From: Rhynchopus sp. YZ270_cl-10
Lineage: Eukaryota
Direction of reading: 5' to 3'
DNA length: 64,000 nucleotides
Assembly: GCA_964035575.1 (NCBI GenBank)
Contig: OZ037838.1
Coordinates: 1,178,001 to 1,242,000, forward strand
Positions 643 to 62,960 of the stretch are shown here, in pieces (the first letter of the stretch is position 1; every line of letters begins with the position of its first letter). A program made the position numbers and the translations under genes. Below the pieces are notes generated by a model, which worked only from the letters and a program-made list of their open reading frames with translations, was not told the origin of the DNA and ran no database searches.

Positions 643-1773
643 ATGATGGATGTGACCTTTGTGCTGGAAGAGTCAGGCGTGACTGCGACAGTGGAGGTGC
701 CGTGCGAGGCGGACGTTGCAGCGGCAAAGGAGGTTGCGTGCACGGCGCTTGCTGTCTCGCCTGCGTCTGTCGAGATGCGCATCGGCACGCAGGTGCTGGA
801 GGGGACGTGCCGTCTGCAGGACACTGCGTTTGATGCAGGGGTGCAGGTTGTGCTTGCCTGCCCTCGCTTTGCCGACATCAAGTGTCCTGCTGAATACAGT
901 GTGGATGGGGGAGTGACGAATTTGTCGCTGTCGCGTTGTGGCACGCTCTGCCTTTATAGTAGAAGTACATGTGTTGGTGGCTTCGATACAGAAACCTTCG
1001 AAACTGCCTTCGTTTTTACTGTTGAGAGTGACTGTTTCATAAGCGGTGCTCCTGCCATCTCACGGTGCAAGACACGTTGCTACCTGGCGTGTGTGGATCG
1101 CCTTCTCGAGCTTGCGCTTCCGGGTGGGGAGGTGCTCCGCAAAGTCGACGGCCCCTCGAAGTTAGTATCCGCCTGTGGCAGTGTTGTTGTCTCCCAAGGT
1201 GACGCCGGTGTCTCTGTGTATGACGAAGACCTGACGTTGCTCCGCTCTCTCTCGCACAAGGTGTGTAGACACACGGCAGTGTCGGACTGTGGTGGGTGGG
1301 TGATGACCTCCTCCGTCAAGGAGAAGAACGCACGTCTGTGGGATGTGAACACAGGTGAAGCTGTGGCATGTGTGCCTATGTCATGGTGTGATGTAGCGCT
1401 TTCAATTTCAAGGTCGGCCTCTGTCTTTGCTGTGGGGGGCTGTGTGGATGAGGCAGAGCGAGTGCAGCTCTACGACTGGTGTGGTGCGGCTCTTCAGAAC
1501 GCCACTATCTCTGGAAGTGTCGTTAGCGTGCAGTTCACCCCGTGTGGGAAGTACCTTGTGGTCTATGTACATAAGTTTACTGACGATGGAGAACTACATC
1601 AAGAGCTGCACCAGTATGATATGGTGACCATGTCTTGTGTGCTTGTGATCCCTGATGTCACCGATCAGTCATTTGTGGTATCACCATGTTCGCGTGTGGT
1701 TGTGTTTCTATCATATGTGTCTTTCGATTGCACCAACGTTGTGACAAGACGTCTGTACCCCCACAACGAGTGA
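643..1773 (+). CDS. Ubl-WD40 propeller family, copy 1
   Basis: Starts at the family-conserved ATGATGGATGTGACC (MMDVTFVLEESG). ~71-aa ubiquitin-like beta-grasp pattern, then WD-like blades (ARLWDVNTGE, VQFTPCGKYL). Confidence 0.85.
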   Translation: MMDVTFVLEESGVTATVEVPCEADVAAAKEVACTALAVSPASVEMRIGTQVLEGTCRLQDTAFDAGVQVVLACPRFADIKCPAEYSVDGGVTNLSLSRCGTLCLYSRSTCVGGFDTETFETAFVFTVESDCFISGAPAISRCKTRCYLACVDRLLELALPGGEVLRKVDGPSKLVSACGSVVVSQGDAGVSVYDEDLTLLRSLSHKVCRHTAVSDCGGWVMTSSVKEKNARLWDVNTGEAVACVPMSWCDVALSISRSASVFAVGGCVDEAERVQLYDWCGAALQNATISGSVVSVQFTPCGKYLVVYVHKFTDDGELHQELHQYDMVTMSCVLVIPDVTDQSFVVSPCSRVVVFLSYVSFDCTNVVTRRLYPHNE

Positions 1774-2193
1774 TGTTCATGCTTTGGCACCATGTGAAAT
1801 GGGTGTGGTGACTTGCCCCCTTGTATTCCGTGGAGGCGGAAGAACTGGTGTCGTCAACAGAAGCCTGCGTCTTGCCACCACACACCTATCCAGTGATGGC
1901 AGATCTGCATCCACGAGCAAGACACCGCAGACCACCTTGTCGCAGCCGAACACCACATCGCCTCCCGCCAGGCCGCCCTCGTCGCCCTCCACACAGAGAT
2001 GTGCGCCATGGTGAGACCTATCCATGTCCTTACTGCTGTTCATTTTTGTCCTGTACCGCAGAACTTCTACCCAACCAAAAACAACGACCCCCATCCCTCG
2101 TCCCCTCTTTCCACGTGTCCACCCTCTCAGCTCCTTCAACTGTCCACCAAACAGAACATTCAATTGCATCACACCAACACAGCTCTTGAAACA
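1774..2193 (+). repeat. Conserved ~420-bp intergenic spacer of the Ubl-WD40 arrays
   Basis: Near-identical copies start at 1774, 9194, 52474, 54074, 57740 and 61403. Partial copies at ~535-642, 13788-13829 and 38580-38920. Confidence 0.9.
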
Positions 2194-3282
2194 ATGATGG
2201 ATGTGACCTTTGTGCTTGAAGAGTCAGGCGTGACTGCGACAGTGGAGGTGCCGTGCGAGGCGGACGTTGCAGCGGCAAAGGAGGTTGCGTGCACGGCGCT
2301 TGCTGTCTCGCCTGCGTCTGTCGAGATGCGCATCGGCACGCAGGTGCTGGAGGGGACGTGCCGTCTGCAGGACACTGCGTTTGGTGAAGGGGTGCAGGTT
2401 GTGCTTGCCTGCCCTCGCTTTGCCGACATCAAGTGTCCTGCTGAGTACACTTCTCAAGGTGCGTATTCGTTCTCGTTGCTGTCGCGTTGTGGTATGTTGT
2501 GCGTCTTTTTACAGTGGAATGGGGAGTACGTCGGCTTTGACACAGAAACCTTCGACACAGTCTTCTCGTTTCGTGTGGACGCTGCGCTGCGATTGCTCCC
2601 TTCCCTCTCGCAGTGCAAGACACGCTGCTACCTCGCGTGTGTGGATCACTTTTGCGAAGTTGCACTTCCGGGTGGGGAGGTGCTCCGCAAATTTGAAGAA
2701 GACTCCAGAGAAGTGTTCGCGTGTGGCGGTGTTGTTGTCTCGAAGGGCACGAACGGTGTATCTGTGTATGACAAACACCTGACGTTGCTCCGCTCTCTCT
2801 CACACGAGGATTGCAACCGTGTGGCAGTATCGGACTGTGGTGGGTGGGTGATGACCTCCTCCAACAAGGAGAACAATGTACGTCTGTGGGATGTGACCAC
2901 AGGTGCAGTTGTGGCATGTGTGCCTGCGGGGACGTACGTGGCGCTTTCACGGTCTGCCTCTGTCTTTGCTGTGGAGTGCTCTGAAAAAGTGCAGCTCTAT
3001 GACTGGAGTGGTGCGGCTCTTGGCAGCTTAGAAAATAAGCAGAGTCTCGTCTCTGCTGTGCAGTTCACTCCGTGTGGGAAGTATGTTGCTGTTTCTTTTG
3101 TGGCTCGTGGAGTACGTGCTAACAAAGCTGCACTCCACCAGTATGATGTGGCCACTATGTCCTGTGTGCGTGTGTTCCGGAATGTTGGCAAATCATTTAC
3201 GATATCGCCGTGTTCGCGTGTGGTTGTGTTTCGGTCATCAGAAAGGGACGCCTTTGTGACTAGGCATCTGTACCCCTACTGA
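2194..3282 (+). CDS. Ubl-WD40 propeller family, copy 2
   Basis: Intact ORF with the conserved Ubl start, ends VTRHLYPY*. Confidence 0.85.
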   Translation: MMDVTFVLEESGVTATVEVPCEADVAAAKEVACTALAVSPASVEMRIGTQVLEGTCRLQDTAFGEGVQVVLACPRFADIKCPAEYTSQGAYSFSLLSRCGMLCVFLQWNGEYVGFDTETFDTVFSFRVDAALRLLPSLSQCKTRCYLACVDHFCEVALPGGEVLRKFEEDSREVFACGGVVVSKGTNGVSVYDKHLTLLRSLSHEDCNRVAVSDCGGWVMTSSNKENNVRLWDVTTGAVVACVPAGTYVALSRSASVFAVECSEKVQLYDWSGAALGSLENKQSLVSAVQFTPCGKYVAVSFVARGVRANKAALHQYDVATMSCVRVFRNVGKSFTISPCSRVVVFRSSERDAFVTRHLYPY

Positions 3283-3518: not shown

Positions 3519-4643
3519 ATGGATGTGACCTTTGTGCTGGAAGAGTCAGGCGTGACTGCGACAGTGGAGGTGCCGTGCGAGGCGGACGTTGCAGCGGCAA
3601 AGGGGGTTGCGTGCACGGCGCTTGCTGTCTCGCCTGCGTCTGTCGAGATGCGCATCGGCACGCAGGTGCTGGAGGGGACGTGCCGTCTGCAGGACACTGC
3701 GTTTGATGCAGGGGTGCAGGTTGTGCTTGCCTGCCCTCGCTTTGCCGACATCAAGTGTCCTGCTGAGTACAGCGCGGATGGGGGCGTGACGTATATGTCG
3801 CTGTCACGTTGTGGCACGCTCTGCCTCTATAGCGATAGTAAGCATATTCGTGTCTTTGACACAGAAACCTTCGAAACTGCCTTCGTTTTTGATGTGGTCA
3901 GCGACTGGTTTGTTTACGGCACACCTGCCATATCGACATGCAAGACACACTGCTACGTGCCGTGTGGGGAAGACTTTCGCAAGCTTGCGCTTCCGGGTGG
4001 GGAGGTGCTCCGCAAAGTCGACGGCACCTCGATGTCAATGTTCGCGTGTGGCGGTGTTGTTGTCTCGAAGGGCACCGACAGCGTCTCTGTGTATGATGAA
4101 GACCTAACGTTGCTCCGCTCTCTCTCGCATACGGGATGCATGGACATGGCAGTATCGGACTGTGGTGGGTGGGTGCTCACCTCCTCCTGGCAGAAGGGGA
4201 ACGGACGTTTGTGGGATGTGAACACAGGTGAAACTGTTGCATGTGTTCCGACAGATGGGTGGCATGTGGCGCTTTCAAGGTCTGCCTCTGTCTTTGCTGT
4301 GGTGGACAGTGTGGACGAGACACAGAGAGTGCAACTCTACGACCGGAGTGGTGCGGCTCTTCAGAACGCCATCATCTCTGGAGAAGTCCTTCGCGTGCAG
4401 TTCACCCCGTGTGGGAAGTACCTTGTGGTACATGTACAAGAGGATCATGCCGATGTACACGCAACGCTGCACCAGTATGATGTGGCGACCATGTCATGTG
4501 TACTTGCGATCCCGGACGTCACCGGTACGCCATTTGCGATATCACCGTGTTCGCGGGTGGTTGTGTTTCTATTATCCGAAAGCGACAACATTGTCACAAG
4601 ATATCTGCACCCCCACAACGAGCTCGTACAGGACCGTGTCTAG
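3519..4643 (+). CDS. Ubl-WD40 propeller family, copy 3
   Basis: Intact ORF with a short C-terminal extension (PHNELVQDRV*). Confidence 0.85.
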   Translation: MDVTFVLEESGVTATVEVPCEADVAAAKGVACTALAVSPASVEMRIGTQVLEGTCRLQDTAFDAGVQVVLACPRFADIKCPAEYSADGGVTYMSLSRCGTLCLYSDSKHIRVFDTETFETAFVFDVVSDWFVYGTPAISTCKTHCYVPCGEDFRKLALPGGEVLRKVDGTSMSMFACGGVVVSKGTDSVSVYDEDLTLLRSLSHTGCMDMAVSDCGGWVLTSSWQKGNGRLWDVNTGETVACVPTDGWHVALSRSASVFAVVDSVDETQRVQLYDRSGAALQNAIISGEVLRVQFTPCGKYLVVHVQEDHADVHATLHQYDVATMSCVLAIPDVTGTPFAISPCSRVVVFLLSESDNIVTRYLHPHNELVQDRV

Positions 4644-8080: not shown

Positions 8081-9193
8081 ATGGATGTGACCTTTGTGCT
8101 GGAAGAGTCAGGCGTGACTGCGACAGTGGAGGTGCCGTGCGAGGCGGACGTTGCAGCGGCAAAGGAGGTTGCGTGCACGGCGCTTGCTGTCTCGCCTGCG
8201 TCTGTCGAGATGCGCATCGGCACGCAGGTGCTGGAGGGGACGTGCCGTCTGCAGGACACTGCGTTTGATGCAGGGGTGCAGGTTGTGCTTGCCCGCCGCT
8301 TTGCCGACATCAAGTGTCCTGCTAAGAACAGTGAACTTAAGTCTGTACAATACTTGACACTGTCGCGTTGTGGAACGCTTTGCCTCTACAGTCTGTACTT
8401 CGCTGGGGTTGGCGGTTTCGACACAGAAACCTTTGACACTGTCTTCTGGATTCAATTGGGTGGTATTCTGATGAGCAGTCCGCCTGCCATCTCACGGTGC
8501 AAGACGCGTTGCTACCTGGCGTGTACGGATCACCTTCTCGAGCTTGCGCTTCCGGGTGGGGAGGTGCTCCGCAAAGTCGACGGCCCCTCGAATGCAGTGT
8601 TCACGTGTGGCGGTGTTGTTGTCTCCCGAGGCAAAGACGGCGTCTCTGTGTATGACGAAGACCTGACGTTGCTCCGCTCTCTCTCGCACGTGGGGTGCTG
8701 GCACATGGCAGTATCGGACTGTGGTAGGTGGGTGATCACCTCCTCCGAAGATGACAGCAACACACGTCTGTGGGATGTGAACACAGGTGAAGCTGTGGCA
8801 TGTGTGCCTGCGGAGGGGTGGTGTGTGGCTCTTTCAAGGTCTGCCTCTGTCTCTGCTGTGGTGGGCGATGTTGAGCAACGGAGAGTGCAGCTCTACGACT
8901 GGAGTGGTGCGGCTCTCCAGAGCGCCACTGTCTCTGGAGATGTCTGTGACGTGCAATTCACCCCGTGTGGGAAGTACTTTGTGGTCCGTGTAGAAGAGTT
9001 TGCTCATGGAGTGCGTAATGTAGAGCTGCACCAGTATGATGTGGCGACCATGTCCTGTGTACTTGTGATCCGAGGCGTCACGGGTCACTCATTTGCGATA
9101 TCACCGTGTTCGCGAGTGGTTGTGCTGGTTGTGTTTGCGTCGTCCGGCAGCACCAACGTCGTGACAAAACATCTGTACCCCCACAACGAGTGA
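8081..9193 (+). CDS. Ubl-WD40 propeller family, copy 4
   Basis: Intact ORF from MDVTFVLEESG to HLYPHNE*. Confidence 0.85.
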   Translation: MDVTFVLEESGVTATVEVPCEADVAAAKEVACTALAVSPASVEMRIGTQVLEGTCRLQDTAFDAGVQVVLARRFADIKCPAKNSELKSVQYLTLSRCGTLCLYSLYFAGVGGFDTETFDTVFWIQLGGILMSSPPAISRCKTRCYLACTDHLLELALPGGEVLRKVDGPSNAVFTCGGVVVSRGKDGVSVYDEDLTLLRSLSHVGCWHMAVSDCGRWVITSSEDDSNTRLWDVNTGEAVACVPAEGWCVALSRSASVSAVVGDVEQRRVQLYDWSGAALQSATVSGDVCDVQFTPCGKYFVVRVEEFAHGVRNVELHQYDVATMSCVLVIRGVTGHSFAISPCSRVVVLVVFASSGSTNVVTKHLYPHNE

Positions 9194-9614: not shown

Positions 9615-10721
9615 ATGATGGATGTGACCTTTGTGCTGGAAGAGTCAGGCGTGACTGCGACAGTGGAGGTGCCGTGCGAGGCGGACGTTGCAGCGGCAAA
9701 GGGGGTTGCGTGCACGGCGCTTGCTGTCTCGCCTGCGTCTGTCGAGATGCGCATCGGCACGCAGGTGCTGGAGGGTACGTGCCGTCTGCAGGACACTGCG
9801 TTTGATGCAGGGGTGCAGGTTGTGCTTGCCCGCCCTCGCTTGGCCGACGTCAAGTGTCCTGCTGAGTACAACGCCAGTTTGGGAGCAGGCTTGTCGCTGT
9901 CTCCTTGTGGAACGCTCTGTGTGTTTGCACAGAACACTGGAGAGTACGTCGGCTTCGACACAGAAACCTTCGACACAGTCTTCTCGTTCAAAGTGGACGA
10001 TGCTGCGAAAGGGGGCCACCCTGCCGTCTCGCAGTGCAAGACACGTTGCTACCTGGCGTGTGTGGATTGCCTTCTCGAGGTTGCGCTTCCGGATGGGGAG
10101 GTGCTCCGCAAAGTCGACGGCACCTCGTACTCAGTGTTCGCGTGTGGCGGTGTTGTTGTCTCGAAGGGCAAAGACGGCGTCTCTGTGTATGACGAAGACC
10201 TGACGTTGCTCCGCACTCTCTCGCACGAAGGGTCTGTGGACTTGGCGGTGTCTGACTGTGGTGGGTGGGTGATCACCTCTTCCCTGAGTGAGAAGAAGGC
10301 ACGTCTGTGGGATGTGAACACAGGTGAAGCTGTGGCATGTGTGCCTACGTATGGGTGGCATATGGCGATCTCGCGGGCTGCCTCTGTCTTTGCTGTGGGA
10401 GTGTGCCCTGACAAAGTGCAGCTCTACGGCTGGAGTGGTGTGGCTCTTACAATCTTGGAAAAGGAGCACTATTGCATCCGTGCCGTGCAGTTCACTCCAT
10501 GTGGGAAGTACGTCGTAGTTGCGTTCATCCTGAATGATGCCATTGATGGTATTTATAATGAGATATGTTCACTGCACCAGTATGATGTGGCGACCATGTC
10601 CTGTGTGCGTGTAATACAGGACACCAAAGGCGAATTTACGATATCGCCGTGTTCACGTGTGGTTATGTTTGAGTCATCAAACAGTGCCGCCCTTGAGACG
10701 AGACATTTGTACCCCAACTGA
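9615..10721 (+). CDS. Ubl-WD40 propeller family, copy 5
   Basis: Intact ORF with the conserved Ubl start. Confidence 0.85.
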   Translation: MMDVTFVLEESGVTATVEVPCEADVAAAKGVACTALAVSPASVEMRIGTQVLEGTCRLQDTAFDAGVQVVLARPRLADVKCPAEYNASLGAGLSLSPCGTLCVFAQNTGEYVGFDTETFDTVFSFKVDDAAKGGHPAVSQCKTRCYLACVDCLLEVALPDGEVLRKVDGTSYSVFACGGVVVSKGKDGVSVYDEDLTLLRTLSHEGSVDLAVSDCGGWVITSSLSEKKARLWDVNTGEAVACVPTYGWHMAISRAASVFAVGVCPDKVQLYGWSGVALTILEKEHYCIRAVQFTPCGKYVVVAFILNDAIDGIYNEICSLHQYDVATMSCVRVIQDTKGEFTISPCSRVVMFESSNSAALETRHLYPN

Positions 10722-11129
10722 GTGATGATTTTTTTTGCATGAGGACAACCAGAGAAGAGTAGCCTCATGAGCACGACAGCGTGCTTGCAGTGCGGCTCTT
10801 GGCAGCTTTTATACGTATGGGCAGGTCAGGGTGTGCAGTCCACCCTGTGTGGGAAGTACCTCCTCGCTGTCGCTGAGTACTGCGGTGTGTTGCTATCGTG
10901 CGTTGCATCAGTATTTGCGTTGCACCCTCGACCTACTAACCTGTGCGAAGATACATTTTCAGATATTTTTACGATAATGTTACATCTCTTTTTCACGTTT
11001 GCTTTGTTAAAACCCTCTCCTCTTGGTGGAAACTACAGACACAACGAAAATATCACAAACACACAAAACAAAACAACCCACACCTCATCTCCTTCCCAAC
11101 AGAGGTGGAACAAGAAGAAGACAAAACAA

Positions 11130-12275
11130 ATGATGGATGTGACCTTTGTGCTGGAAGAGTCAGGCGTGACTGCGACAGTGGAGGTGCCGTGCGAGGCGGA
11201 CGTTGCAGCGGCAAAGGGGGTTGCGTGCACGGCGCTTGCTGTCTGGCCTGCGTCTGTCGAGATGCGCATCGGCACGCAGGTGCTGGAGGGGACGTGCCGT
11301 CTGCAGGACACTGCGTTTGATTCAGGGGTGCAGGTTGTGCTTGCCTGCCGCTTTGCTGACATCAAGTGTCCTGCTGAGTGCAGTATTGAGGTGCCACCTG
11401 GAACGCAGCGGATGTATCTACATCGCTTTTCGCTGTCTCCTTGTGGAGCACTCTGCCTCTGTACACATCAGCAAGGATATGTCACCGGCCTCGATACAGA
11501 AACCTTCAGCCCTGCCTTCAAGTTCAAAGTAGACTTTGAGGTGATCGGTGCGCCTGCCATCTCACGGTGCAAGACACGCTGCTACCTGCCGTGCAAGGAA
11601 GTCCTTCTCGATGTTGCACTTCCGGGTGGGGAGGTGCTCCGCAAAGTCGACGGCCCCTCGTTCAAAGTGTTCGCGCGTGGTGGTGTCGTTGTCTCCAAAG
11701 GCAAAGACGGCGTCTCTGTGTATGACGAAGACCTTACGTTGCTCCGCTCTCTCTCACACCAAATGTGTGGCAAAGCAGCAGTGTCGGACTGTGGTGGGTG
11801 GGTGATCACCTCCTCCAACAGTGAGGATAACGCACGTCTGTGGGATGTGAACACAGGTGAAGCTGTGGCATGTGTGCCTGCGGACGGGTGGGCGTGTCGC
11901 TTAGCGATTTCACGGTCTGCCTCTGTCTTTGCAGTGGTGCAGGACGAAGCCCAGCTCTATGACTGGAGTGGTGCGGCTCTTCGCAGTATTGATGTGTGTG
12001 TGGATGAGATCGTGTCTGTACAGTTCACCCCGTGTGGGAAGTACCTTGTGGTATACGGAGAGGTTCTGGTTCCTGATGACGACGAAGACGGAGATGAGGA
12101 TGGTTACGATGGTTTCCTGCACCAGTACGATGTGGCGACCATGTCCTGTGTGCGTGTGATATCTCAAGAGTCATATGTGTCCTTTGCGATATCGCCGTGT
12201 TCACGCGTTGTTGTGGGCATGCAGCCAGATGGCGTCATTGTGACGAGACATCTGTACCCACACAACAGTGAGTGA
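11130..12275 (+). CDS. Ubl-WD40 propeller family, copy 6
   Basis: Intact ORF with an acidic loop insertion (PDDDEDGDEDGYDG) in blade 6. Confidence 0.85.
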   Translation: MMDVTFVLEESGVTATVEVPCEADVAAAKGVACTALAVWPASVEMRIGTQVLEGTCRLQDTAFDSGVQVVLACRFADIKCPAECSIEVPPGTQRMYLHRFSLSPCGALCLCTHQQGYVTGLDTETFSPAFKFKVDFEVIGAPAISRCKTRCYLPCKEVLLDVALPGGEVLRKVDGPSFKVFARGGVVVSKGKDGVSVYDEDLTLLRSLSHQMCGKAAVSDCGGWVITSSNSEDNARLWDVNTGEAVACVPADGWACRLAISRSASVFAVVQDEAQLYDWSGAALRSIDVCVDEIVSVQFTPCGKYLVVYGEVLVPDDDEDGDEDGYDGFLHQYDVATMSCVRVISQESYVSFAISPCSRVVVGMQPDGVIVTRHLYPHNSE

Positions 12276-12653: not shown

Positions 12654-13787
12654 ATGATGGATGTGACCTTTGTGCTGGAAGAGTCAGGCGTGACTGCGAC
12701 AGTGGAGGTGCCGTGCGAGGCGGACGTTGCAGCGGCAAAGGAGGTTGCGTGCACGGCGCTTGCTGTCTCGCCTGCGTCTGTCGAGATGCGCATCGGCACG
12801 CAGGTGCTGGAGGGGACGTGCCGTCTGCAGGACACTGCGTTTGATTCAGGGGTGCAGGTTGTGCTTGCCTGTCCTCGCTTGGCCGACATCAAGTGTCCTG
12901 CTGAGTACAGTAGGAAAACTACACAGAATCGTGTGCAACACGTGTCGCTGTCGCGTTGTGGAACACTCTGCCTCTATAGTTATGGGCAGCATGTTGATGG
13001 ATTCAACGCAGAAACTTTCAACACTGCCTTCGCTTTTACTCTAGTCCGCGGTTGGATGTACGGTCCTCCTGCCATCTCGCGGTGCAAGACACGCTGCTAC
13101 CTGCCGTGTATGTGGCACCTTCTCGAGGTTGCCATTCCTGGTGGGGAGGTGCTCCGCAAAGTCGATGGAACTTCGTACGCAGTGTTCGCGTGTGGTTGTT
13201 GTCTCGAAGGGCAAAGACGGCGTCTCTGTGTATGACGAAGACCTGACGTTGCTCCGCTCTATCTCGCACGAAGGGTGTGTGGACTTGGCGGTGTCTGACT
13301 GTCACTGTGGTGGGTGGGTGATCGCCTCCTCCGAAGAGAACAACGCACGTCTGTGGGATGTGAACACAGGTGAAGCTGTGGCATGTGTGCCGACAGATGG
13401 GTGGTTCATGGCGCTTTCAAGGTCTGCCTCTGTCTTTGCTGTGGTGGACAATGTGGACGAAGTACAGAGAGTGCAACTCTACGACTGGAGTGGTGCGGCT
13501 CTTCAGAACGCCACTATCTCTGGACGTGTGGTTGGCGTGCAATTCGCCCCGTGTGGGAAGTACCTTGTGGTGCAGGTACAAGAGCTTAGTTACAATAATC
13601 GCCTACGTCAGATCGCAAAGTTGCACCAGTATGATGTGGCGACCATGTCCTGTGTACTTGTGATCCGAGACGTCACCGTCAGTCATTTGTGATATCACCG
13701 TGTTCGCGTGTGGTTGTGTTTTTATCATATGTGTCTTTCGATTGCACCAACGTTGTGACAAGACGTCTGTACCCCCACAACGAGTGA
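12654..13787 (+). pseudogene. Ubl-WD40 propeller family, copy 7 (two frameshifts)
   Basis: 5-nt deletion near 13195 (GCGTGTGGTTGTTGTC versus GCGTGTGGCGGTGTTGTTGTC in paralogs). 1-nt deletion near 13678 relative to copy 1. Confidence 0.8.
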
Positions 13788-51324: not shown

Positions 51325-52473
51325 ATGGATGTGACCTTTGTGCTGGAAGAGTCAGGCGTGACTGCGACAGTGGAGGTGCCGTGCGAGGCGGACGTTGCAG
51401 CGGCAAAGGAGGTTGCGTGCACGGCGCTTGCTGTCTCGCCTGCGTCTGTCGAGATGCGCATCGGCACGCAGGTGCTGGAGGGGACGTGCCGTCTGCAGGA
51501 CACTGCGTTTGATGCAGGGGTGCAGGTTGTGCTTGCCCGCCCTCGCATTGCCGACATCAAGTGTCCTGCTGAGTACAGTGTAAAGCGAACAGGAAAGCAG
51601 GATATGAAAATAAATAGTATATCGCTGTTATCGCTGTCTCCTTGTGGAGCACTCTGCCTCTTTACACAGGATTACTATGTGACCGGACTCGATACAGAAA
51701 CCTTCAGCCCTGCCTTCAAGTTCAAAGTAGACATTAAGGTGTGCGGTGCGCCTGCCATCTCACGGTGCAAGACACGCTGCTACCTGGCCTGTTCGAGGGA
51801 AGGACTTCGCGAGGTTTCGCTTCCGGGTGGGGAGGTGCTCCGCAAAGTTGACGGCTCCTCGTTTGAAGTGTTTGCGTGTGGCAGTGTTGTTGTCTCCCGT
51901 GGCCGAGGTCGCATCTCTGTGTATGACGAAGACCTGACGTTGCTCCGCACTCTCTCGCACGAAGGGTGCGACCAGTGGGGCGGGAACATGGAAGTGTCGC
52001 CCTGTGGTGGGTGGGTGATCACCGCCTCCTTCAGGGAGAAAAACGCACGTCTGTGGGATGTGAACACAGGTGAAGCTGTGGCATGTATGCCTATGTCAAG
52101 GTGCGCTGTAGCGCTGTCAAGGTATACCTCTGTCTTTGCTGTGGGGGTAGATGAGAATGGGGCACGGAGTGTGCAGCTCTACGACTGGAGTGGTGCGGCT
52201 CTTCAGAACGCCACTATGTCTCGAAGTGCCGGTGAACTGCAATTCACCCCGTGTGGGAAGTACCTTGTGGCCTGTGTCCAAATGCGCACTGACAATGGAG
52301 CATTAGACGCAGAGCTGCACCAGTATGATGTGGCGACCATGTCCTGTGTGCTTGTGATCCCAAAAGTCAAACGTACGTCATTTGCGATATCACCGTGTTC
52401 GCGTGTGGTTGTGTTTGTATCATCCGACAGCACTAACGTTGTAACAAAACATCTGCACCCCCACAACGAGTGA
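51325..52473 (+). CDS. Ubl-WD40 propeller family, copy 9
   Basis: Intact ORF with the conserved Ubl start. Confidence 0.85.
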   Translation: MDVTFVLEESGVTATVEVPCEADVAAAKEVACTALAVSPASVEMRIGTQVLEGTCRLQDTAFDAGVQVVLARPRIADIKCPAEYSVKRTGKQDMKINSISLLSLSPCGALCLFTQDYYVTGLDTETFSPAFKFKVDIKVCGAPAISRCKTRCYLACSREGLREVSLPGGEVLRKVDGSSFEVFACGSVVVSRGRGRISVYDEDLTLLRTLSHEGCDQWGGNMEVSPCGGWVITASFREKNARLWDVNTGEAVACMPMSRCAVALSRYTSVFAVGVDENGARSVQLYDWSGAALQNATMSRSAGELQFTPCGKYLVACVQMRTDNGALDAELHQYDVATMSCVLVIPKVKRTSFAISPCSRVVVFVSSDSTNVVTKHLHPHNE

Positions 52474-52886: not shown

Positions 52887-54073
52887 ATGATGGATGTGAC
52901 CTTTGTGCTGGAAGAGTCAGGCGTGACTGCGACAGTGGAGGTGCCGTGCGAGGCGGACGTTGCAGCGGCAAAGGAGGTTGCGTGCACGGCGCTTGCTGTC
53001 TCGCCTGCGTCTGTCGAGATGCGCATCGGCATGCAGGTGCTGGAGGGGACGTGCCGTCTGCAGGACACTGCGTTTGGTGCAGGGGTGCAGATTGTGCTTG
53101 CCTGCCCTCGCTTTGCCGATATCAAGTGTCCTGCTGAGTGCAGTGTAGAGGTGCTAACTGATGGGCAGCGGCCAAATATAGTTCACGTATCGTTGTCTCC
53201 TTGTGGAGCACTCTGCCTCTTTACACAGAATGAAGGTTATGTGAACGGCCTCGATACAGAAACCTTCAGCCCTGCCTTCAAGTTCAAAGTAGACATTAAG
53301 GTGTGCGGTGCGCCTGCCATCTCACGGTGCAAGACACGCTGCTACCTGGCCTGTTCGAGGGAAGGACTTCTCGAGGTTATACTTCCGGGTGGGGAGATGC
53401 TCCGCAAAGTTGACGGACCCTCGTTCGAAGTGTTCGCGTGTGGCGGCGTTGTTGTCTCCCGTGGCCAAGGTAGCGTCTCTGTGTATGACGAAGACCTGAC
53501 GTTGCTCCGCACTATGTCGCACAAAGGGTGCAACCAGTGGGGCGGGAACATCGAAGTGTCGCGCTGTGGTGGGTGGGTGATCACCTCCTCCCTGTGGGAG
53601 AAAAACGCACTTCTGTGGGATGTAAACACAGGTGAAGCTGTGTTCACATGTGTGTCACAGCTTTATATGCCTATGTCAAGGTGCGTTGTAGCCCTGTCAA
53701 GGTATACCTCTGTCTTTGCTGTGGGGGTAGATGAGAATGGGGCACGGAGTGTGCAGCTCTACGACTGGAGTGGTGCGGCTCTTCAGAACGCCACTATCTC
53801 TGGAAGTGGCCTTGGCCTGCAATTCACCCCGTGTGGGAAGTACCTTGTGGTCCAGGTACAAAGCGCACTGACGATGGAGCAGATTATGCAGAGCTGCACC
53901 AGTATGATGTGGCGACCATGTCCTGTGTACTTGTGATTCCAGACGTTGCTGCCTCCTTTGATGAATCATTTGCGATATCACCGTGTTCGCGTGTGGTTGT
54001 GTTTGTATCATCCGACAGCACCACAGTAGTGACTACCATTGCGACAAGACATCTGTACCCCCACAACGAGTGA
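52887..54073 (+). pseudogene. Ubl-WD40 propeller family, copy 10 (one frameshift)
   Basis: 1-nt deletion near 53862 (CAAAGCGCACTGAC versus CAAATGCGCACTGAC in copy 9). The C-terminus continues in ORF 53831-54073. Could be a sequencing error. Confidence 0.75.
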
Positions 54074-54494: not shown

Positions 54495-55607
54495 ATGATG
54501 GATGTGACCTTTGTGCTGGAAGAGTCAGGCGTGACTGCGACAGTGGAGGTGCCGTGCGAGGCGGACGTTGCAGCGGCAAAGGAGGTTGCGTGCACGGCGC
54601 TTGCTGTCTCGCCTGCGTCTGTCGAGATGCGCATCGGCACGCAGGTGCTGGAGGGGACGTGCCGTCTGCAGGATACTGCGTTTGATGCAGGGGTGCAGAT
54701 CGTGCTTGCCTGTCCTCGCTTTGCCGACATCAAGTGTCCTGCTGAGTACAGTGTAAAGGTTCCAACAGGAACGCAGGATATGAAAATAAATAGTATATCA
54801 CTGTCTCCTTGTGGAGCACTCTGCCTCTTTACACATAAGGCAGGCTATGTCACCGGCCTCGAGACAGAAACCTTCAGCCCTGCCTTCAAGTTCAAAGTAG
54901 ACATTGTGGTGTGCGGTGTGCCTGCCATCTCACGGTGCAAGACACGCTGCTACCTAGCCTGGAGCGAACGTATACACGAGGTTGCGCTTCCGGGTGGGGA
55001 GGTGCTCCGCAAAGTCGACGACCCCTCGTACGCAGTATACGCGCGTGGCGGTGTTGTTGTCTCCCGTAGCCCAGGAGGTGTCTCTGTGTATGACGAAGAC
55101 CTGACGTTGCTCCGCTCTATTTCACACGAAAGGTGCAGTGAGGCAGTGGTGTCGAACTGTGGTGAGTGGGTGATCACCTCCTCACTCAGTGAGAGCAACG
55201 CACGTCTGTGGGATGTGAACACAGGTGAAGCTGTGGCATGCGTGCCTACGGATGGGAGGTACGTCGCGCTTTCGCGGTCTGCCTCTGTCTTTGCTGCGGT
55301 GCACTCTCACGAAGTGCAGCTCTATGACTGGAGTGGTGCGGCTCTTGACAGCTTTGATAAACCGGGGTATCTCTTTGTCTGTTCCATGCAGTTCACTCAG
55401 TGTGGGAAGTACCTTTTACTTGAGTTGGTCGCTGATTATGCCGAAAAATATTGGCTACAACAGTATGATGTTTCGACTATGTCCTGTGTGCGTGAATTCT
55501 CAGACTTCGCTGTGTTTTCATTCACGATATCGCCGTGTTCACGCGTGGTACTTTTTGCGAAGCCGGGACGAGACACCATTGTGACGAGACATCTGTACCC
55601 CTACTGA
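54495..55607 (+). CDS. Ubl-WD40 propeller family, copy 11
   Basis: Intact ORF with the same protein sequence as copy 13. Confidence 0.85.
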   Translation: MMDVTFVLEESGVTATVEVPCEADVAAAKEVACTALAVSPASVEMRIGTQVLEGTCRLQDTAFDAGVQIVLACPRFADIKCPAEYSVKVPTGTQDMKINSISLSPCGALCLFTHKAGYVTGLETETFSPAFKFKVDIVVCGVPAISRCKTRCYLAWSERIHEVALPGGEVLRKVDDPSYAVYARGGVVVSRSPGGVSVYDEDLTLLRSISHERCSEAVVSNCGEWVITSSLSESNARLWDVNTGEAVACVPTDGRYVALSRSASVFAAVHSHEVQLYDWSGAALDSFDKPGYLFVCSMQFTQCGKYLLLELVADYAEKYWLQQYDVSTMSCVREFSDFAVFSFTISPCSRVVLFAKPGRDTIVTRHLYPY

Positions 55608-56629: not shown

Positions 56630-57739
56630 ATGGATGTGACCTTTGTGCTGGAAGAGTCAGGCGTGACTGCGACAGTGGAGGTGCCGTGCGAGGCGGACGT
56701 TGCAGCGGCAAAGGAGGTTGCGTGCACGGCGCTTGCTGTCTCGCCTGCGTCTGTCGAGATGCGCATCGGCACACAGGTGCTGGAGGGGACGTGCCGTCTG
56801 CAGGACACTGCGTTTGATGCAGGGGTGCAGGTTGTGCTTGCCCGCCGCTTTGCCGACATCAAGTGTCCTGCTGAGTACAATGCGCAAGAGGGGGCAGGAT
56901 TGTTGCTGTCGCGTTGTGGAACGCTCTGTGTTTTTTCACAGCCCACTGGAGAGTACGTAGGCTTTGACACAGAAACCTTCGACACAGTCTTCTCGTTCAA
57001 AGTAGACGATGCTACGAAAGGCATCCTCCCTACCATCTCGCAGTGCAAGACACGCTGCTACCTGGTTTGTGGGGGTCACTTAACAGATTGCCTTCTCGAG
57101 GTTGCGCTTCCGGGTGGGGAGGTGCTCCGCAAAGTCGACGGCTCCTCGCACTCAGTGTTCGCGTGTGGCAGTGTGGTTGTCTCAAAGGGAAAATACGGCG
57201 TCTCTGTGTATGACGAAGACCTGACGTTGCTCCGCTCTCTCTCGCATGAAGGGTGCAGGAACATGGCAGCGTCGGACTGTGGTGGGTGGGTGATCACCTC
57301 CTCCCACAAGGAGAAGAACGCACGTCTGTGGGATGTGAACACAGGTGAAGCTGTTACATGTGTGCCTATGGATGGATGGTGTGTGGGTCTTTCCCGGTCT
57401 GCCTCTGTCTTTGCCGTCGTGGACAATGTGGACGAAGTACAGAGAGTGCAGCTCTACGACTGGAGTGGTGCGGCTCTTCAGAACGCCACTATCTCTGGAC
57501 GTGTCTTTGGCGTGCAATTCACCCAGTGTGGGAAGTACCTTGTAGTTCATGCACACAAACCTCACCTACGTCACTCAGAGCTGCAACAGTATGACGTGGC
57601 GACTATGTCCTGTGTGCGTGTGATTCCAGGCGTCACAGGTCCGTCATTTGCGATATCACCGTGTTCGCGTGTGGTTGTGTTTCTATTATCCATAAATGTC
57701 AGCGTTGTGACACGGCATCTGTACCCCCACAACGAGTGA
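56630..57739 (+). CDS. Ubl-WD40 propeller family, copy 12
   Basis: Intact ORF with the same protein sequence as copy 14. Confidence 0.85.
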   Translation: MDVTFVLEESGVTATVEVPCEADVAAAKEVACTALAVSPASVEMRIGTQVLEGTCRLQDTAFDAGVQVVLARRFADIKCPAEYNAQEGAGLLLSRCGTLCVFSQPTGEYVGFDTETFDTVFSFKVDDATKGILPTISQCKTRCYLVCGGHLTDCLLEVALPGGEVLRKVDGSSHSVFACGSVVVSKGKYGVSVYDEDLTLLRSLSHEGCRNMAASDCGGWVITSSHKEKNARLWDVNTGEAVTCVPMDGWCVGLSRSASVFAVVDNVDEVQRVQLYDWSGAALQNATISGRVFGVQFTQCGKYLVVHAHKPHLRHSELQQYDVATMSCVRVIPGVTGPSFAISPCSRVVVFLLSINVSVVTRHLYPHNE

Positions 57740-58157: not shown

Positions 58158-59270
58158 ATGATGGATGTGACCTTTGTGCTGGAAGAGTCAGGCGTGACTG
58201 CGACAGTGGAGGTGCCGTGCGAGGCGGACGTTGCAGCGGCAAAGGAGGTTGCGTGCACGGCGCTTGCTGTCTCGCCTGCGTCTGTCGAGATGCGCATCGG
58301 CACGCAGGTGCTGGAGGGGACGTGCCGTCTGCAGGATACTGCGTTTGATGCAGGGGTGCAGATCGTGCTTGCCTGTCCTCGCTTTGCCGACATCAAGTGT
58401 CCTGCTGAGTACAGTGTAAAGGTTCCAACAGGAACGCAGGATATGAAAATAAATAGTATATCACTGTCTCCTTGTGGAGCACTCTGCCTCTTTACACATA
58501 AGGCAGGCTATGTCACCGGCCTCGAGACAGAAACCTTCAGCCCTGCCTTCAAGTTCAAAGTAGACATTGTGGTGTGCGGTGTGCCTGCCATCTCACGGTG
58601 CAAGACACGCTGCTACCTAGCCTGGAGCGAACGTATACACGAGGTTGCGCTTCCGGGTGGGGAGGTGCTCCGCAAAGTCGACGACCCCTCGTACGCAGTA
58701 TACGCGCGTGGCGGTGTTGTTGTCTCCCGTAGCCCAGGAGGTGTCTCTGTGTATGACGAAGACCTGACGTTGCTCCGCTCTATTTCACACGAAAGGTGCA
58801 GTGAGGCAGTGGTGTCGAACTGTGGTGAGTGGGTGATCACCTCCTCACTCAGTGAGAGCAACGCACGTCTGTGGGATGTGAACACAGGTGAAGCTGTGGC
58901 ATGCGTGCCTACGGATGGGAGGTACGTCGCGCTTTCGCGGTCTGCCTCTGTCTTTGCTGCGGTGCACTCTCACGAAGTGCAGCTCTATGACTGGAGTGGT
59001 GCGGCTCTTGACAGCTTTGATAAACCGGGGTATCTCTTTGTCTGTTCCATGCAGTTCACTCAGTGTGGGAAGTACCTTTTACTTGAGTTGGTCGCTGATT
59101 ATGCCGAAAAATATTGGCTACAACAGTATGATGTTTCGACTATGTCCTGTGTGCGTGAATTCTCAGACTTCGCTGTGTTTTCATTCACGATATCGCCGTG
59201 TTCACGCGTGGTACTTTTTGCGAAGCCGGGACGAGACACCATTGTGACGAGACATCTGTACCCCTACTGA
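58158..59270 (+). CDS. Ubl-WD40 propeller family, copy 13
   Basis: Intact ORF, duplicate of copy 11. Confidence 0.85.
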   Translation: MMDVTFVLEESGVTATVEVPCEADVAAAKEVACTALAVSPASVEMRIGTQVLEGTCRLQDTAFDAGVQIVLACPRFADIKCPAEYSVKVPTGTQDMKINSISLSPCGALCLFTHKAGYVTGLETETFSPAFKFKVDIVVCGVPAISRCKTRCYLAWSERIHEVALPGGEVLRKVDDPSYAVYARGGVVVSRSPGGVSVYDEDLTLLRSISHERCSEAVVSNCGEWVITSSLSESNARLWDVNTGEAVACVPTDGRYVALSRSASVFAAVHSHEVQLYDWSGAALDSFDKPGYLFVCSMQFTQCGKYLLLELVADYAEKYWLQQYDVSTMSCVREFSDFAVFSFTISPCSRVVLFAKPGRDTIVTRHLYPY

Positions 59271-60292
59271 GTTGTGCAGCTTTCTCGCAGGCAGTCCACC
59301 CCCAGAACGCACCTCCTCGCTGTCGCCGTATCAGTGTTCGTTTTCGCTGTCCCCCTGAATGCGTATCCTTCTTCAGCGTGAAGACATCTGCCCCTCCGCA
59401 TTACCGCACACCACTCCGCTACTCCGAGCCAACGACTGCAAGGTGATGGTTCCTGCGGGCATTATAAAAAGAAGTATAAACATGCCAACCTAACTTTGGT
59501 GTTACACTCCACCCCCTTCCCAACACAGCTAACTGATTATTTTTAATCCCACCACCGACCCCCATTTTACCCAAAACACATCCCTCCACAGGGAAACCCG
59601 AGCAAAAATAAATCAGAACAAAACCCCCCGCACACATCGGGAGGGGCGGAGGATCCAGGGTGATTTCAGTGAGGGGGGGATTCCCCCTCTTGCCTTTCAC
59701 CCCCATCCTCCACTGTTTTTTTCCCTCACCCCTTTATTTCTTCTTCTCCCACACAATGCGGACTGCGAGGCTCCCTGCAGAGAAATCCCGGAGTGCTATA
59801 GAGAGTTCGGAGGTGCCGCTGTTTAGCTCTTTTAATACGAGTTTTCAGTTTTTGGGTGCGGATCCTGTATTATATAGAAGGCAAAGCTTCGTACAGGGAC
59901 CCTACACCACAGGATTCGTGTCCCTGTGTTTGCAATGATCCCCGTTCATCTGGCTGATGAGTGGAAGCGGGAGCAGCACATATCAGATGTAAACCACGAA
60001 ATGGATGTAGCACTGCATGGTTGGGTGTCCACCCCCGGTACATCGGTCATTATGTACAGCCGGTCATGTACAAGGTACACTGTCACGAGAGTGCTTTTGT
60101 ATTTCAGCCCTATTTTGATTTGGGGCCACATACGAGGTGCTTCCGTCTGTTCACGCTGTTCTCCTTCATGGTTACCGTCCTCTGCAGTCTTTTGTGTCTA
60201 TGATTAGAGCCAGCCAGACTTTCACAGAGTGTACATGCAATACAAACAACCCACACCTCCCAACAGAGGTGGAACAAGAAAAAGACAAAACA

Positions 60293-61402
60293 ATGGATGT
60301 GACCTTTGTGCTGGAAGAGTCAGGCGTGACTGCGACAGTGGAGGTGCCGTGCGAGGCGGACGTTGCAGCGGCAAAGGAGGTTGCGTGCACGGCGCTTGCT
60401 GTCTCGCCTGCGTCTGTCGAGATGCGCATCGGCACACAGGTGCTGGAGGGGACGTGCCGTCTGCAGGACACTGCGTTTGATGCAGGGGTGCAGGTTGTGC
60501 TTGCCCGCCGCTTTGCCGACATCAAGTGTCCTGCTGAGTACAATGCGCAAGAGGGGGCAGGATTGTTGCTGTCGCGTTGTGGAACGCTCTGTGTTTTTTC
60601 ACAGCCCACTGGAGAGTACGTAGGCTTTGACACAGAAACCTTCGACACAGTCTTCTCGTTCAAAGTAGACGATGCTACGAAAGGCATCCTCCCTACCATC
60701 TCGCAGTGCAAGACACGCTGCTACCTGGTTTGTGGGGGTCACTTAACAGATTGCCTTCTCGAGGTTGCGCTTCCGGGTGGGGAGGTGCTCCGCAAAGTCG
60801 ACGGCTCCTCGCACTCAGTGTTCGCGTGTGGCAGTGTGGTTGTCTCAAAGGGAAAATACGGCGTCTCTGTGTATGACGAAGACCTGACGTTGCTCCGCTC
60901 TCTCTCGCATGAAGGGTGCAGGAACATGGCAGCGTCGGACTGTGGTGGGTGGGTGATCACCTCCTCCCACAAGGAGAAGAACGCACGTCTGTGGGATGTG
61001 AACACAGGTGAAGCTGTTACATGTGTGCCTATGGATGGATGGTGTGTGGGTCTTTCCCGGTCTGCCTCTGTCTTTGCCGTCGTGGACAATGTGGACGAAG
61101 TACAGAGAGTGCAGCTCTACGACTGGAGTGGTGCGGCTCTTCAGAACGCCACTATCTCTGGACGTGTCTTTGGCGTGCAATTCACCCAGTGTGGGAAGTA
61201 CCTTGTAGTTCATGCACACAAACCTCACCTACGTCACTCAGAGCTGCAACAGTATGACGTGGCGACTATGTCCTGTGTGCGTGTGATTCCAGGCGTCACA
61301 GGTCCGTCATTTGCGATATCACCGTGTTCGCGTGTGGTTGTGTTTCTATTATCCATAAATGTCAGCGTTGTGACACGGCATCTGTACCCCCACAACGAGT
61401 GA
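60293..61402 (+). CDS. Ubl-WD40 propeller family, copy 14
   Basis: Intact ORF, duplicate of copy 12. Confidence 0.85.
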   Translation: MDVTFVLEESGVTATVEVPCEADVAAAKEVACTALAVSPASVEMRIGTQVLEGTCRLQDTAFDAGVQVVLARRFADIKCPAEYNAQEGAGLLLSRCGTLCVFSQPTGEYVGFDTETFDTVFSFKVDDATKGILPTISQCKTRCYLVCGGHLTDCLLEVALPGGEVLRKVDGSSHSVFACGSVVVSKGKYGVSVYDEDLTLLRSLSHEGCRNMAASDCGGWVITSSHKEKNARLWDVNTGEAVTCVPMDGWCVGLSRSASVFAVVDNVDEVQRVQLYDWSGAALQNATISGRVFGVQFTQCGKYLVVHAHKPHLRHSELQQYDVATMSCVRVIPGVTGPSFAISPCSRVVVFLLSINVSVVTRHLYPHNE

Positions 61403-61820
61403 TGTTCATGCTTTGGCACCATGTGAAATGGGTGTGGTGACTTGCCCCCTTGTATTCCGTGGAGGCGGAAGAACTGGTGTCGTCAACAGAAGCCTGCGTC
61501 TTGCCACCACACACCTATCCAGTGATGGCAGATCTGCATCCACGAGCAAGACACCGCAGACCACCTTGTCGCAGCCGAACACCACATCGCCTCCCGCCAG
61601 GCCGCCCTCGTCGCCCTCCACACAGAGATGTGCGCCATGGTGTGACCTTCATGTGCTCACTGCGGCTCATTTTTGTCCTGTACCCCAGAACTTCTACCCC
61701 AACCCAAAACAACGACCCCCATCCCTCGTCCCCTCTTTCCACGTGTCCACCCTCTCAGCTCCTTCAACTGTCCACAAACAGAACATTACATTGTATCACA
61801 CCAACACAGCTCTTGAAACA

Positions 61821-62960
61821 ATGATGGATGTGACCTTTGTGCTGGAAGAGTCAGGCGTGACTGCGACAGTGGAGGTGCCGTGCGAGGCGGACGTTGCAGC
61901 GGCAAAGGAGGTTGCGTGCACGGCGCTTGCTGTCTCGCCTGCGTCTGTCGAGATGCGCATCGGCACGCAGGTGCTGGAGGGGACGTGCCGTCTGCAGGAC
62001 ACTGCGTTTGATGCAGGGGTGCAGGTTGTGCTTGCCTGTCGCTTTGCCGACATCAAGTGTCCTGCTGAGTACAGTGTGCAGGAGCAAACACACGGCTTGT
62101 CGCTGTCGCGTTGTGGGGAGCTCTGCGTCCATAGTGACTGGGTGGGGCATGTTGGCGGTTTCGACACAGAAACCTTTGGCACTGCCTTCACGTTCAAGGT
62201 GGATGCTCAAGCAATCTTGGCGCCTGCCATCTCACGGTGCAAGACACGCTGCTACCTGGCGTGTGTGGATCACCTTCTCGAGGTTGCGCTTCCGGGTGGG
62301 GAGGTGCTCCACAGAGTCGATGGCCACTCGTACTCAGTGTTCGCATGTGGCAGTGTTGTTGTCGCATCATGTGCAGACGGCGTCTCTGTGTATGACGAAG
62401 ACCTGACGTTGCTCCGCTCTCTCTCGCATAAAGGGTGCGCCCAGGAGTACGGGAACATAGCAGTGTCGGACTGTGGTGGGTGGGTGATCACCTCCTCCGA
62501 TGTCGAGAGCAACGCGCGTCTGTGGGATGTGAACACAGGTGAAGCTGTGGCATGTGTAGACTGTGTGCCTGTGTCAAGGTGCGCTGTCGAGCTTTCACGG
62601 TCTGCCTCTGTCTTTGCTGTGGTGGGCTCTGGCAACGTGCAGCTCTTTGATTGGAGTGGTGCGGCTCTTCGCAGTGTTGATGTGGATGGGGATGTCGAGG
62701 GCATGCAGTTCACCCCGTGTGGGAAATACCTTGTGATCGAGACGGCTGTGCAATGCATAGATGATGAAGATTACGGTTATGTACGCCAGTATGATGTGGC
62801 GACCATGTCCTGTGTGCGTGTGATATCGCAAACTTCTGGTAGGTCCTTTGCGATATCACCGTGTTCACGTGTGGTTGTGTTAGGGTTTGAGGAAGAAAGG
62901 GAAAGCAACACAAGAAGCGGTATTGTAACAAGGCATCTGTACCCACACAACAGTGAGTGA
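61821..62960 (+). CDS. Ubl-WD40 propeller family, copy 15
   Basis: Intact ORF ending IVTRHLYPHNSE*, like copy 6. Confidence 0.85.
   Translation: MMDVTFVLEESGVTATVEVPCEADVAAAKEVACTALAVSPASVEMRIGTQVLEGTCRLQDTAFDAGVQVVLACRFADIKCPAEYSVQEQTHGLSLSRCGELCVHSDWVGHVGGFDTETFGTAFTFKVDAQAILAPAISRCKTRCYLACVDHLLEVALPGGEVLHRVDGHSYSVFACGSVVVASCADGVSVYDEDLTLLRSLSHKGCAQEYGNIAVSDCGGWVITSSDVESNARLWDVNTGEAVACVDCVPVSRCAVELSRSASVFAVVGSGNVQLFDWSGAALRSVDVDGDVEGMQFTPCGKYLVIETAVQCIDDEDYGYVRQYDVATMSCVRVISQTSGRSFAISPCSRVVVLGFEEERESNTRSGIVTRHLYPHNSE

Follow-up and report, generated by a model that had tools for sequence, protein, structure and literature searches.

Diversifying family with a uniform head

The window, the whole stretch of 64,000 nucleotides analysed here, carries 15 copies of a gene that joins a predicted ubiquitin-like head to a predicted beta-propeller. 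Together with their paralogues these copies form a real diversifying binder repertoire, which works like the fungal HNWD and the F-box/BTB expansions and belongs to neither. Judging from sequence matches, the genome, that of a marine flagellate and probably a diplonemid, holds well over a hundred near-copies of this one gene. The best 120 of 415 matches in a protein search were all family members, 93 of them on a single 2.7-Mb contig; the remaining 295 may include unrelated WD40 proteins, and the count is not a genome-wide total. The family proposed in the original prediction is confirmed, with a membership exceeding the count given there. In runs X2, X3 and X5 the summed contig depth of the head exceeded that of the neighbouring gene by about three orders of magnitude, a ratio that is not a copy number. 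A gene next to the family has its best relatives among diplonemids.

The original prediction did not recognise the family as a described one, and we found no description of it in print. Exact short head patterns, a search blind to distant relatives, found none in viral, JGI metagenome or prokaryote genome contigs; a profile search with eight divergent paralogues returned only two members of the family itself and generic WD40 proteins, and the ESM Atlas gave nothing beyond leads under 0.9. As expected, no conserved housekeeping family was matched, and none of the outcomes that the original prediction named as counting against it (a head of another fold, variable sites free of selection and clustering, untranscribed copies, a housekeeping match) was found.

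A seed scan of the window recovered the 15 predicted intronless copies, all on the plus strand (Table 1), and tblastn of the window revealed no further family locus. There are 13 distinct sequences because of an exact tandem duplication of 3,861 nt (54476-58336 = 58139-61999), which contains both identical pairs (54498 and 58161; 56630 and 60293). Open frames are kept in 11 of the 13 despite many indels, and two (12657 and 52890) are frameshifted, a feature absent from the original prediction. An Rfam search gave no matches, and none of 41 tandem-repeat rows falls inside any family gene. A signal peptide or transmembrane segment had been predicted to be absent, and none was clear by hydropathy, a crude proxy (11 copies; highest 19-residue mean 1.16-1.81, N-terminus <=0.82). 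The window also contains a second Ubl-headed gene, bearing LRR, which had no match in viral contigs.

Table 1. Features of the Ubl-propeller family in the window.
Feature	Position	Strand	Length (aa)	Evidence or remark
In-frame ATG of copy 1	643	+		
Copy 1	646..1773	+	375	seed scan, structure models
Head of copy 1	646-858	+		codons 1-71
Propeller of copy 1	within 646..1773	+		about codons 82-372
Homogenised ~420-nt intergenic spacer	1774..2196	+		
Copy 2	2197..3282	+	361	seed scan
Copy 3	3519..4643	+	374	seed scan
Copy 4	8081..9193	+	370	seed scan
Same ~420-nt spacer	9194-9617, 52474-52889, 54074-54497, 57740-58160, 61403-61823			0-4% apart
Copy 5	9618..10721	+	367	seed scan
AG, likely trans-splice acceptor	11100..11101	+		where related X1 contig joins spliced-leader-like 5' end
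Copy 6	11133..12275	+	380	seed scan
Copy 7	12657..13787	+		seed scan + tblastn; two frameshifts, likely pseudogene
Copy 8	37314..38378	+	354	seed scan; isolated
Same spacer, more diverged	38560-38990			
Copy 9	51325..52473	+	382	seed scan
Copy 10	52890..54073	+		seed scan + tblastn; frameshift near 3' end, likely pseudogene
Copy 11	54498..55607	+	369	seed scan
Copy 12	56630..57739	+	369	seed scan
Copy 13	58161..59270	+		seed scan + tblastn; identical to copy 11
Copy 14	60293..61402	+		seed scan + tblastn; identical to copy 12
Copy 15	61824..62960	+	378	seed scan

One related contig of run X1 carries a spliced-leader-like 5' end, a hint of transcription from a single contig of a run that is only guessed to be RNA and comes from a different coded organism.

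Ubiquitin-like head

The ubiquitin beta-grasp proposed for the head was recovered by structure prediction, structural matches and profile alignment. In a first structure model the head pLDDT was below 50, because the alignment was without diversity there, and it rose to 83 once a divergent alignment was supplied. Foldseek superposed the head on ubiquitin with a TM of 0.85 and an rmsd of 1.3 over 73 columns, and structural comparison with ubiquitin gave Z 12.9 (rmsd 1.6, 75 aligned). By itself the window head had no ubiquitin match in Pfam; PF00240 was matched by five of eight older-paralogue heads at E<=10, and profile A5, one that contains the other Ubl of the window, aligned to mono-ubiquitin at E about 4e-6, as profile A6 still does to ubiquitin without it. 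The C-terminal diglycine of a conjugatable Ubl is absent from all 15 heads, each of which has one lysine, exactly as had been read from the sequence.

Two roles had been suggested for such a head, and neither was upheld. As a canonical UBL shuttle it would dock on Rpn1, Rpn10 or Rpn13 like Rad23 or Dsk2, which would be consistent with its ubiquitin-type fold and with the Dsk2 (Z 12.3) and Rad23 (Z 11.3) UBLs among its structural matches, although many non-proteasomal Ubls score almost the same as these. The Rpn1, Rpn10 and Rpn13 receptors engage the L8/I44/V70 hydrophobic patch of the Rad23/Dsk2 UBLs. In 15 of 15 heads, however, these positions are E/R/A (E8 or E9, R45, A71; register from profile alignments A5/A6, residues read across the 15 copies), and Rad23-type proteasome docking is therefore unlikely. 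The head carries 11 acidic and three basic residues, and Pfam scans of seven copies found no UBA domain, the propeller occupying the rest of the chain. Midnolin offers a precedent, in that a Ubl together with a binding domain can bring about degradation independently of ubiquitin (PMC12088389); even so, we regard a shuttle role as very unlikely.

The other role, that of a Crinkler-like delivered effector, would have the Ubl head direct the protein into cells of prey or host, whose proteins the variable propeller would bind. The headers of CRN proteins have a Ubl fold and lack true signal peptides, and some also lack LxLFLAK (PMC5289972); the Ubl-LRR gene provides a second Ubl head in the window. 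Nevertheless, LxLFLAK occurs in none of the 15 heads, Crinkler Pfam matched none of ten, and the C-terminal part has a binding fold, with no enzymatic toxin domain in Pfam scans or the structure model, so that delivery as an effector appears quite unlikely.

The first 213 nt are 0-6 nt apart among the 15 copies (mean 2.95), in agreement with the nearly invariant 5' part of about 215 nt noted originally. The explanation offered for it, a conserved docking module, was not supported: the omega of the head is 0.57, and among older paralogues head divergence keeps pace with that of the propeller bottom face. Head constancy is mostly a matter of concerted evolution, since the non-coding spacer shows the same uniformity (0-4%) and the heads of older paralogues have diverged.

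One-sided variation and selection in the propeller

The propeller model has seven four-stranded blades with velcro closure (block pLDDT 85-97); its best structural matches are G-beta and WDR5 (E about 1e-14), and Pfam gave weak WD40 matches in the seven copies scanned. No STAND or death domain was found in Pfam scans, and no F-box or BTB domain was matched in scans of copies or heads. This part differs by 11-33% between copies. The variable blocks originally described are real, but the segments called unalignable do align and correspond to the top-face loops. Among 119 paralogues, entropy exceeded 2.5 bits in 50 of 108 top-face and 11 of 74 mid-strand columns, and in none of 109 bottom-face or 71 head columns, with 59-113 variants per top loop (14 loops) and 12-37 per bottom turn (13 turns). 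The clustering of variable sites was thereby borne out, on one face of the predicted propeller.

Omega is 0.98 on the top face versus 0.28 on the bottom face. Positive selection, a further part of the original prediction, withstood codon tests with per-blade trees (11 copies, 262 ungapped codons): the LRT was 26.3 with site-rate variation and 21.1 once multi-nucleotide changes were also allowed, with an omega of about 2.4 for 27% of codons, and it reached at most 7.2 in 19 null simulations. Seventeen sites had a posterior > 0.8, 13 on the top face, four mid-strand and none on the bottom face. Top-face single-nucleotide differences between close pairs gave a pN/pS of 0.56-0.59, a measure that excludes the many codons differing at 2-3 nt. 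Since omega on the top face is about 1 on average and the synonymous sites there have diverged as well (pS 0.50 top versus 0.22 bottom), much of the contrast between the faces is homogenisation of the framework.

This average would be consistent with a largely neutral expansion, in which conversion keeps the conserved blocks alike and surface loops that tolerate change drift, as would the spacer that is as uniform as the head, the two broken copies in 13 and the third codon positions, variable in 104 of the 108 top codons. However, omega > 1 remains significant once three corrections are made and none of the 19 null runs came up to it, the bottom-face loops are exposed too and yet have an omega of 0.28, and open frames persist in most distinct copies despite their indels. 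Neutral expansion is on these grounds highly improbable.

The copies are also mosaics. Each of four segments rejected the trees of the other three in AU tests (p<0.05 in 12 of 12); such tests on short segments favour their own tree, and weight was placed on the well-supported conflicts. A run-length conversion test was set aside as confounded by rate variation and gaps. Targets of diversity-generating retroelements show adenine-specific variation and spare third codon positions. Here variable top-face columns were spread over all majority bases (A 71/78, C 56/65, G 95/109, T 50/72), and this, with the variable third positions, rules out DGR-type mutagenesis.

Proposed role

We see about an even chance that these proteins are intracellular adaptors, in which selected, swapped top loops catch fast-evolving foreign proteins and the uniform head and bottom face pass them to a shared host partner. 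The absence of a signal peptide suggests a cytosolic or nuclear location. The foreign proteins caught by the top face could come from endosymbionts, viruses or prey; diplonemids host endosymbionts with secretion and toxin systems (PMC8061765). The one host partner to which head and bottom face would hand them would most likely be a protein-disposal or AAA-ATPase machine, engaged via another surface than the I44 patch. The link to disposal is weak because that patch is lost and the head has diverged in older paralogues. The uniform spacer, the head and the bottom-face turns may serve as anchors for unequal crossover and gene conversion; such anchored exchange would keep the copies recombinable and move loops between them, and selection would retain new top-face variants. 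The broken state of two of the 13 distinct copies counts against the adaptor reading.

From this pattern we infer an immune role, although every sequence result would fit equally well with an internal conflict, that is, self/non-self or mating recognition, or restraint of the cell's own selfish elements, instead of defence against microbes. HNWD, the best-studied family with the same selection pattern, acts in fungal allorecognition (PMC1805685). Against this stand the lack of a STAND or death domain, the lack of a signal peptide or transmembrane segment for cell contact, and the more than 100 paralogues in one assembly, which would exceed the need of allelic recognition; we consider internal conflict unlikely.

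The adaptor reading has a bolder form, possible though doubtful: a germline antibody-like library that would number hundreds of seven-bladed propellers, each with 14 hypervariable loops that recombine. The ubiquitin-fold handle would carry bound proteins of endosymbionts or viruses to a single host disposal machine, with no need of a ubiquitin ligase, and the Ubl-LRR gene would be a second library on a like handle. On either form, a cell with this family would own a large binder library, likely against foreign proteins. The family is a natural library of propeller binders and a concrete, testable candidate, with one scaffold, a mapped variable face and named selected positions, in addition to a uniform handle and a putative loop-shuffling mechanism. 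If the role in defence is true, this would be repertoire-based non-self recognition in a protist, with a head unlike F-box, BTB or NLR.

Comparison with known systems

Rsa4/NLE1 and Ytm1/WDR12 carry a WD40 propeller after the UBL, the domain order found here. They were absent among the 60 PDB matches listed, however, and the NLE Pfam (PF08154) matched none of ten heads at E<=10. In these conserved ribosome-assembly factors the UBL serves an AAA-ATPase, Rea1, as a handle at its MIDAS (PMC6920918); in Ytm1 the MIDAS-binding glutamate is E80.

Midnolin and Rad23/Dsk2 similarly join an integral Ubl to a substrate-binding module, but are single conserved genes (PMC12088389), whereas the family here has lost the I44 patch and shows no evident C-terminal Rpn1 helix or UBA. 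The Crinkler/CR proteins share a Ubl header (by fold) without a signal peptide and a multicopy, recombining organisation; they swap unrelated enzymatic toxin domains (PMC5289972), whereas in this family a single propeller scaffold is kept, one of its faces varies, and LxLFLAK is absent.

Nematode F-box/MATH-BTB genes, proposed to detect foreign proteins, are reported to have the same asymmetry of variation, a small constant N-terminal module with a positively selected binding domain, in a large birth-and-death family (original study cited in PMC4334554). Selection is confined to the substrate-binding domain in both, but the head here is a beta-grasp and not cullin-binding, and a ligase link would be hypothetical. 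The fungal HNWD/NWD NLRs (HET-E and HET-D of Podospora anserina) differ in their NACHT/STAND and HET domains, which are lacking here, and in their near-identical blades; here the blades of any one gene are not near-identical to each other, different genes exchange sequence at homologous positions, and members far exceed 10. They nonetheless share the WD40 propeller, positive selection in the same d-a and b-c top-face loops and concerted evolution elsewhere (PMC1805685).

Results

Scanning both strands of the window with a seed revealed 15 family copies, every one of them on the + strand, and no further locus emerged there from tblastn. Two of the 13 distinct sequences are frameshifted (12657 and 52890; copies are named by start coordinate), and two copy pairs are identical because a 3,861-nt stretch is exactly duplicated in tandem (period 3,663 nt), reflecting either a very recent event or an assembly artefact. 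Across the 15 copies the first 213 nt, encoding the ubiquitin-like head, differ pairwise by 0–6 nt and the propeller parts by 11–33%, in agreement with the original description of 15 copies, 13 of them distinct, with a near-uniform 5' part and a variable downstream part.

With copy 646 as protein query, 415 matches were obtained among proteins clustered at 90% identity. In the best 120 of these, 95–100% of the query was aligned and 119 had at least 65% identity; counted from the table of matches, the 2,712,987-nt contig shared with the neighbouring PIP5K-like gene carries 93 of these 120, and a 456,684-nt contig carries 22. Searching 1.84 billion representatives with a profile brought in diverged older paralogues, five at 47–57% identity and six at 27–30% that keep the two-domain layout. 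Of the family representatives, 18 were looked up and all proved to be ENA-only (0 from EukProt or NCBI). One older paralogue, P0152, is on a contig equal in length to that of two close members, so some or more of the old paralogues seem to come from the same assembly as the close ones.

All 17 stop-to-stop frames of at least 300 aa in the window are also on the + strand; polycistronic euglenozoan gene clusters show such a one-strand arrangement. The PIP5K-like neighbour, which served solely for lineage placement, has two full-length relatives, at 46% in Rhynchopus humris and at 41% in Lacrimia lanifica, and this makes a diplonemid host most likely. The domain combination of the BIR-containing gene is unusual, and this gene probably extends across an intron to about 20944. 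The arrays and inverted pair are possibly mobile-element ends. In a second Ubl-headed gene, the ubiquitin and LRR_5 parts sit in different frames; the very high summed contig depth over 6072–7005 in three runs hints at membership of another multicopy Ubl-plus-binder family.

Features of the window in addition to the family copies
Feature	Position	Strand
Part of spacer with short open stretch, pyrimidine tract and AG (also in spacer copies)	1900-2051	
Second Ubl-headed gene, Pfam ubiquitin	6410-6625	+
Second Ubl-headed gene, BspA-type LRR_5	6874-7341	+
Long gene with zf-C6H2, BIR and SUMO-like domains	14618-20506	+
Gene-poor region	21184-36882	
Degenerate 10-11-nt arrays	21184-21338, 23950-24093	
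30-nt arrays resembling inverted arms	25327-25492, 26629-26753	
Inverted pair	29070-29258/30611-30810	
Orphan spacer copy	38560-38990	
Neighbour gene, EF-hand, PDZ, PIP5K-like protein	45070-48942	+
Exact tandem duplication	54476-58336 = 58139-61999	
6-nt G-rich array near window end	63278-63376	

Structure prediction supported the proposed architecture for both domains. AlphaFold2 modelled the propeller confidently (98 close paralogues in the alignment; block pLDDT 85–97, residues 81–370), with strands consistent with seven blades closed by strand 82–87 and with G-beta and WDR5 as best structural matches. The head was unresolved in this first model and reached pLDDT 83 with a ubiquitin pattern after 15 sequences including divergent paralogues were added; this model compares with ubiquitin at TM 0.85 and Z 12.9, in agreement with sequence profiles. 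The head is acidic (11 D/E vs 3 K/R), lacks the diglycine, as originally noted, and has an invariant cysteine, C32 (32/32 aligned paralogues). With head numbering equal to ubiquitin + 1, the positions of L8, I44, H68 and V70 hold E8 or E9, R45, V69 and A71 in 15/15 copies, and this loss of the I44 patch argues against the Rad23-type docking originally suggested.

Propeller faces were assigned by blade topology, not coordinates, with strand a2 placed by hand from the DSSP string; the top face comprised the d-a and b-c loops, by the convention of PMC1805685, and two flanking residues on each side. The set analysed was 119 of the best 120 listed paralogues (P0083, without the start motif, was left out), and its ranking against copy 646 introduces a bias. 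In this set, entropy exceeded 2.5 bits in 50/108 top, 11/74 mid-strand, 0/109 bottom and 0/71 head columns. The 14 top loops had 59–113 variants each, vs 12–37 for each of the 13 bottom turns. Variable sites therefore cluster on one propeller face, and the hypervariable columns are rich in N, H, K, Y, D and E. Family proteins contain 17–23 cysteines; S-x-C-G-like a-b turns were observed on the conserved bottom face in most blades.

Codon models, in our own implementation, were applied to the 11 intact distinct window copies. Omega was 0.57, 0.98, 1.01 and 0.28 in the head, top, mid and bottom partitions, respectively, and pS was 0.016, 0.50, 0.31 and 0.22; since synonymous divergence varies in parallel with omega, ordinary site tests would exaggerate selection. 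When each blade was given its own tree (262 ungapped codons), the LRT for a class with omega > 1 was 204.6 without site-rate variation and 26.3 with it (omega 2.5, 25% of codons), and of the 17 sites with posterior > 0.8, 13 were top, 4 mid and 0 bottom. The LRT was still 21.1 (p = 2.6e-5) with instantaneous double and triple changes permitted, and null simulations for the site-rate-variation model reached at most 7.2 (n = 9), or 6.4 with within-blade recombination (n = 10). Counting against selection, top-face pN/pS for single-nucleotide differences in the closest blade-wise pairs was 0.33 with the smallest of three thresholds and 0.56–0.59 with the other two, a count that leaves out codons with 2–3 nt differences (71 top vs 8 bottom, widest threshold). 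The codon-level check initially proposed thus supports an omega > 1 class, and we read positive selection as real but moderate, superimposed on whole-loop exchange.

Trees of four propeller segments were mutually rejected in 12/12 AU tests; copy 54498, for example, groups with 11133, 51325 and 52890 in segment 1 (100% support) and with 2197 and 9618 in segment 3 (95%). Blade-wise distances among the 119 paralogues correlated at just -0.08 to 0.38. DGR-type mutagenesis was excluded as a source of variation.

Six non-coding spacers of ~420 nt between tandem copies are 0–4% apart; a seventh, orphan copy is about 13% diverged, with no family gene after it. In older paralogues, head/bottom-face identities were 0.83/0.77, 0.65/0.59, 0.41/0.38 and 0.27/0.40, with the top face lowest every time. 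Spacer uniformity, and head divergence in step with the bottom face, indicate that the near-identity of heads in the young clade of close paralogues comes from homogenisation. The head is a conserved domain, and the constancy originally noted holds within this clade but is no proof of an invariant docking surface.

The spacer contains a short open stretch resembling a helical coding remnant, followed by GT, a pyrimidine tract and AG, which may be the trans-splice acceptor for downstream copies. X1, a run guessed to be RNA (coded organism A, 9% of words), yielded a 325-nt contig that shows 7 differences from the head in a 212-nt stretch. The 29 letters of its loose 5' end include the euglenozoan spliced-leader core given in PMC7859406, and the junction coincides in position with the AG at 11100–11101. 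This single contig suggests trans-spliced mRNA from a family member, either in a relative or from a divergent paralogue, and does not imply expression of the window copies.

Discussion

It is established that the family is large, varies on one side, is under selection, and is both mosaic and homogenised; the ubiquitin-like and propeller folds are predicted. That the family is a repertoire of binders is, taken alone, highly probable. Each protein would bind a different fast-evolving ligand through its top face, and the uniform head and bottom face would be presented to a common intracellular partner. We favour foreign ligands, because sustained diversification across many paralogues is usually a sign of conflict. 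They are also favoured because endosymbionts equipped with secretion and toxin systems live in diplonemids, according to the review PMC8061765, which gives viral infection of diplonemids as unverified. The weakest step is the output, and we give the whole chain an even chance. Integral Ubl domains have uses beyond Rad23-type docking, as in Ytm1/Rsa4, where the UBL serves as AAA-ATPase handle (PMC6920918), and midnolin, where it sits on Rpn11 (PMC12088389).

No published description of the family was found, although subscription papers, primary Crinkler and F-box studies and other diplonemid supplements could mention it. The main text of PMC10161547 has no mention of ubiquitin, WD40 or propeller, the matches listed from its 7 supplementary files (2/6 WD40 places) were just unrelated genes, and these terms are absent from PMC7052976. 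The family works like HNWD sensors (PMC1805685) and F-box/BTB expansions (PMC4334554), yet is without a defining feature of each; it has the domain order of Rsa4/Ytm1 but misses a defining feature of theirs (PMC6920918), and lacks a defining feature of Crinklers (PMC5289972). It likewise lacks one of UBL-UBA shuttles. The family itself is real.
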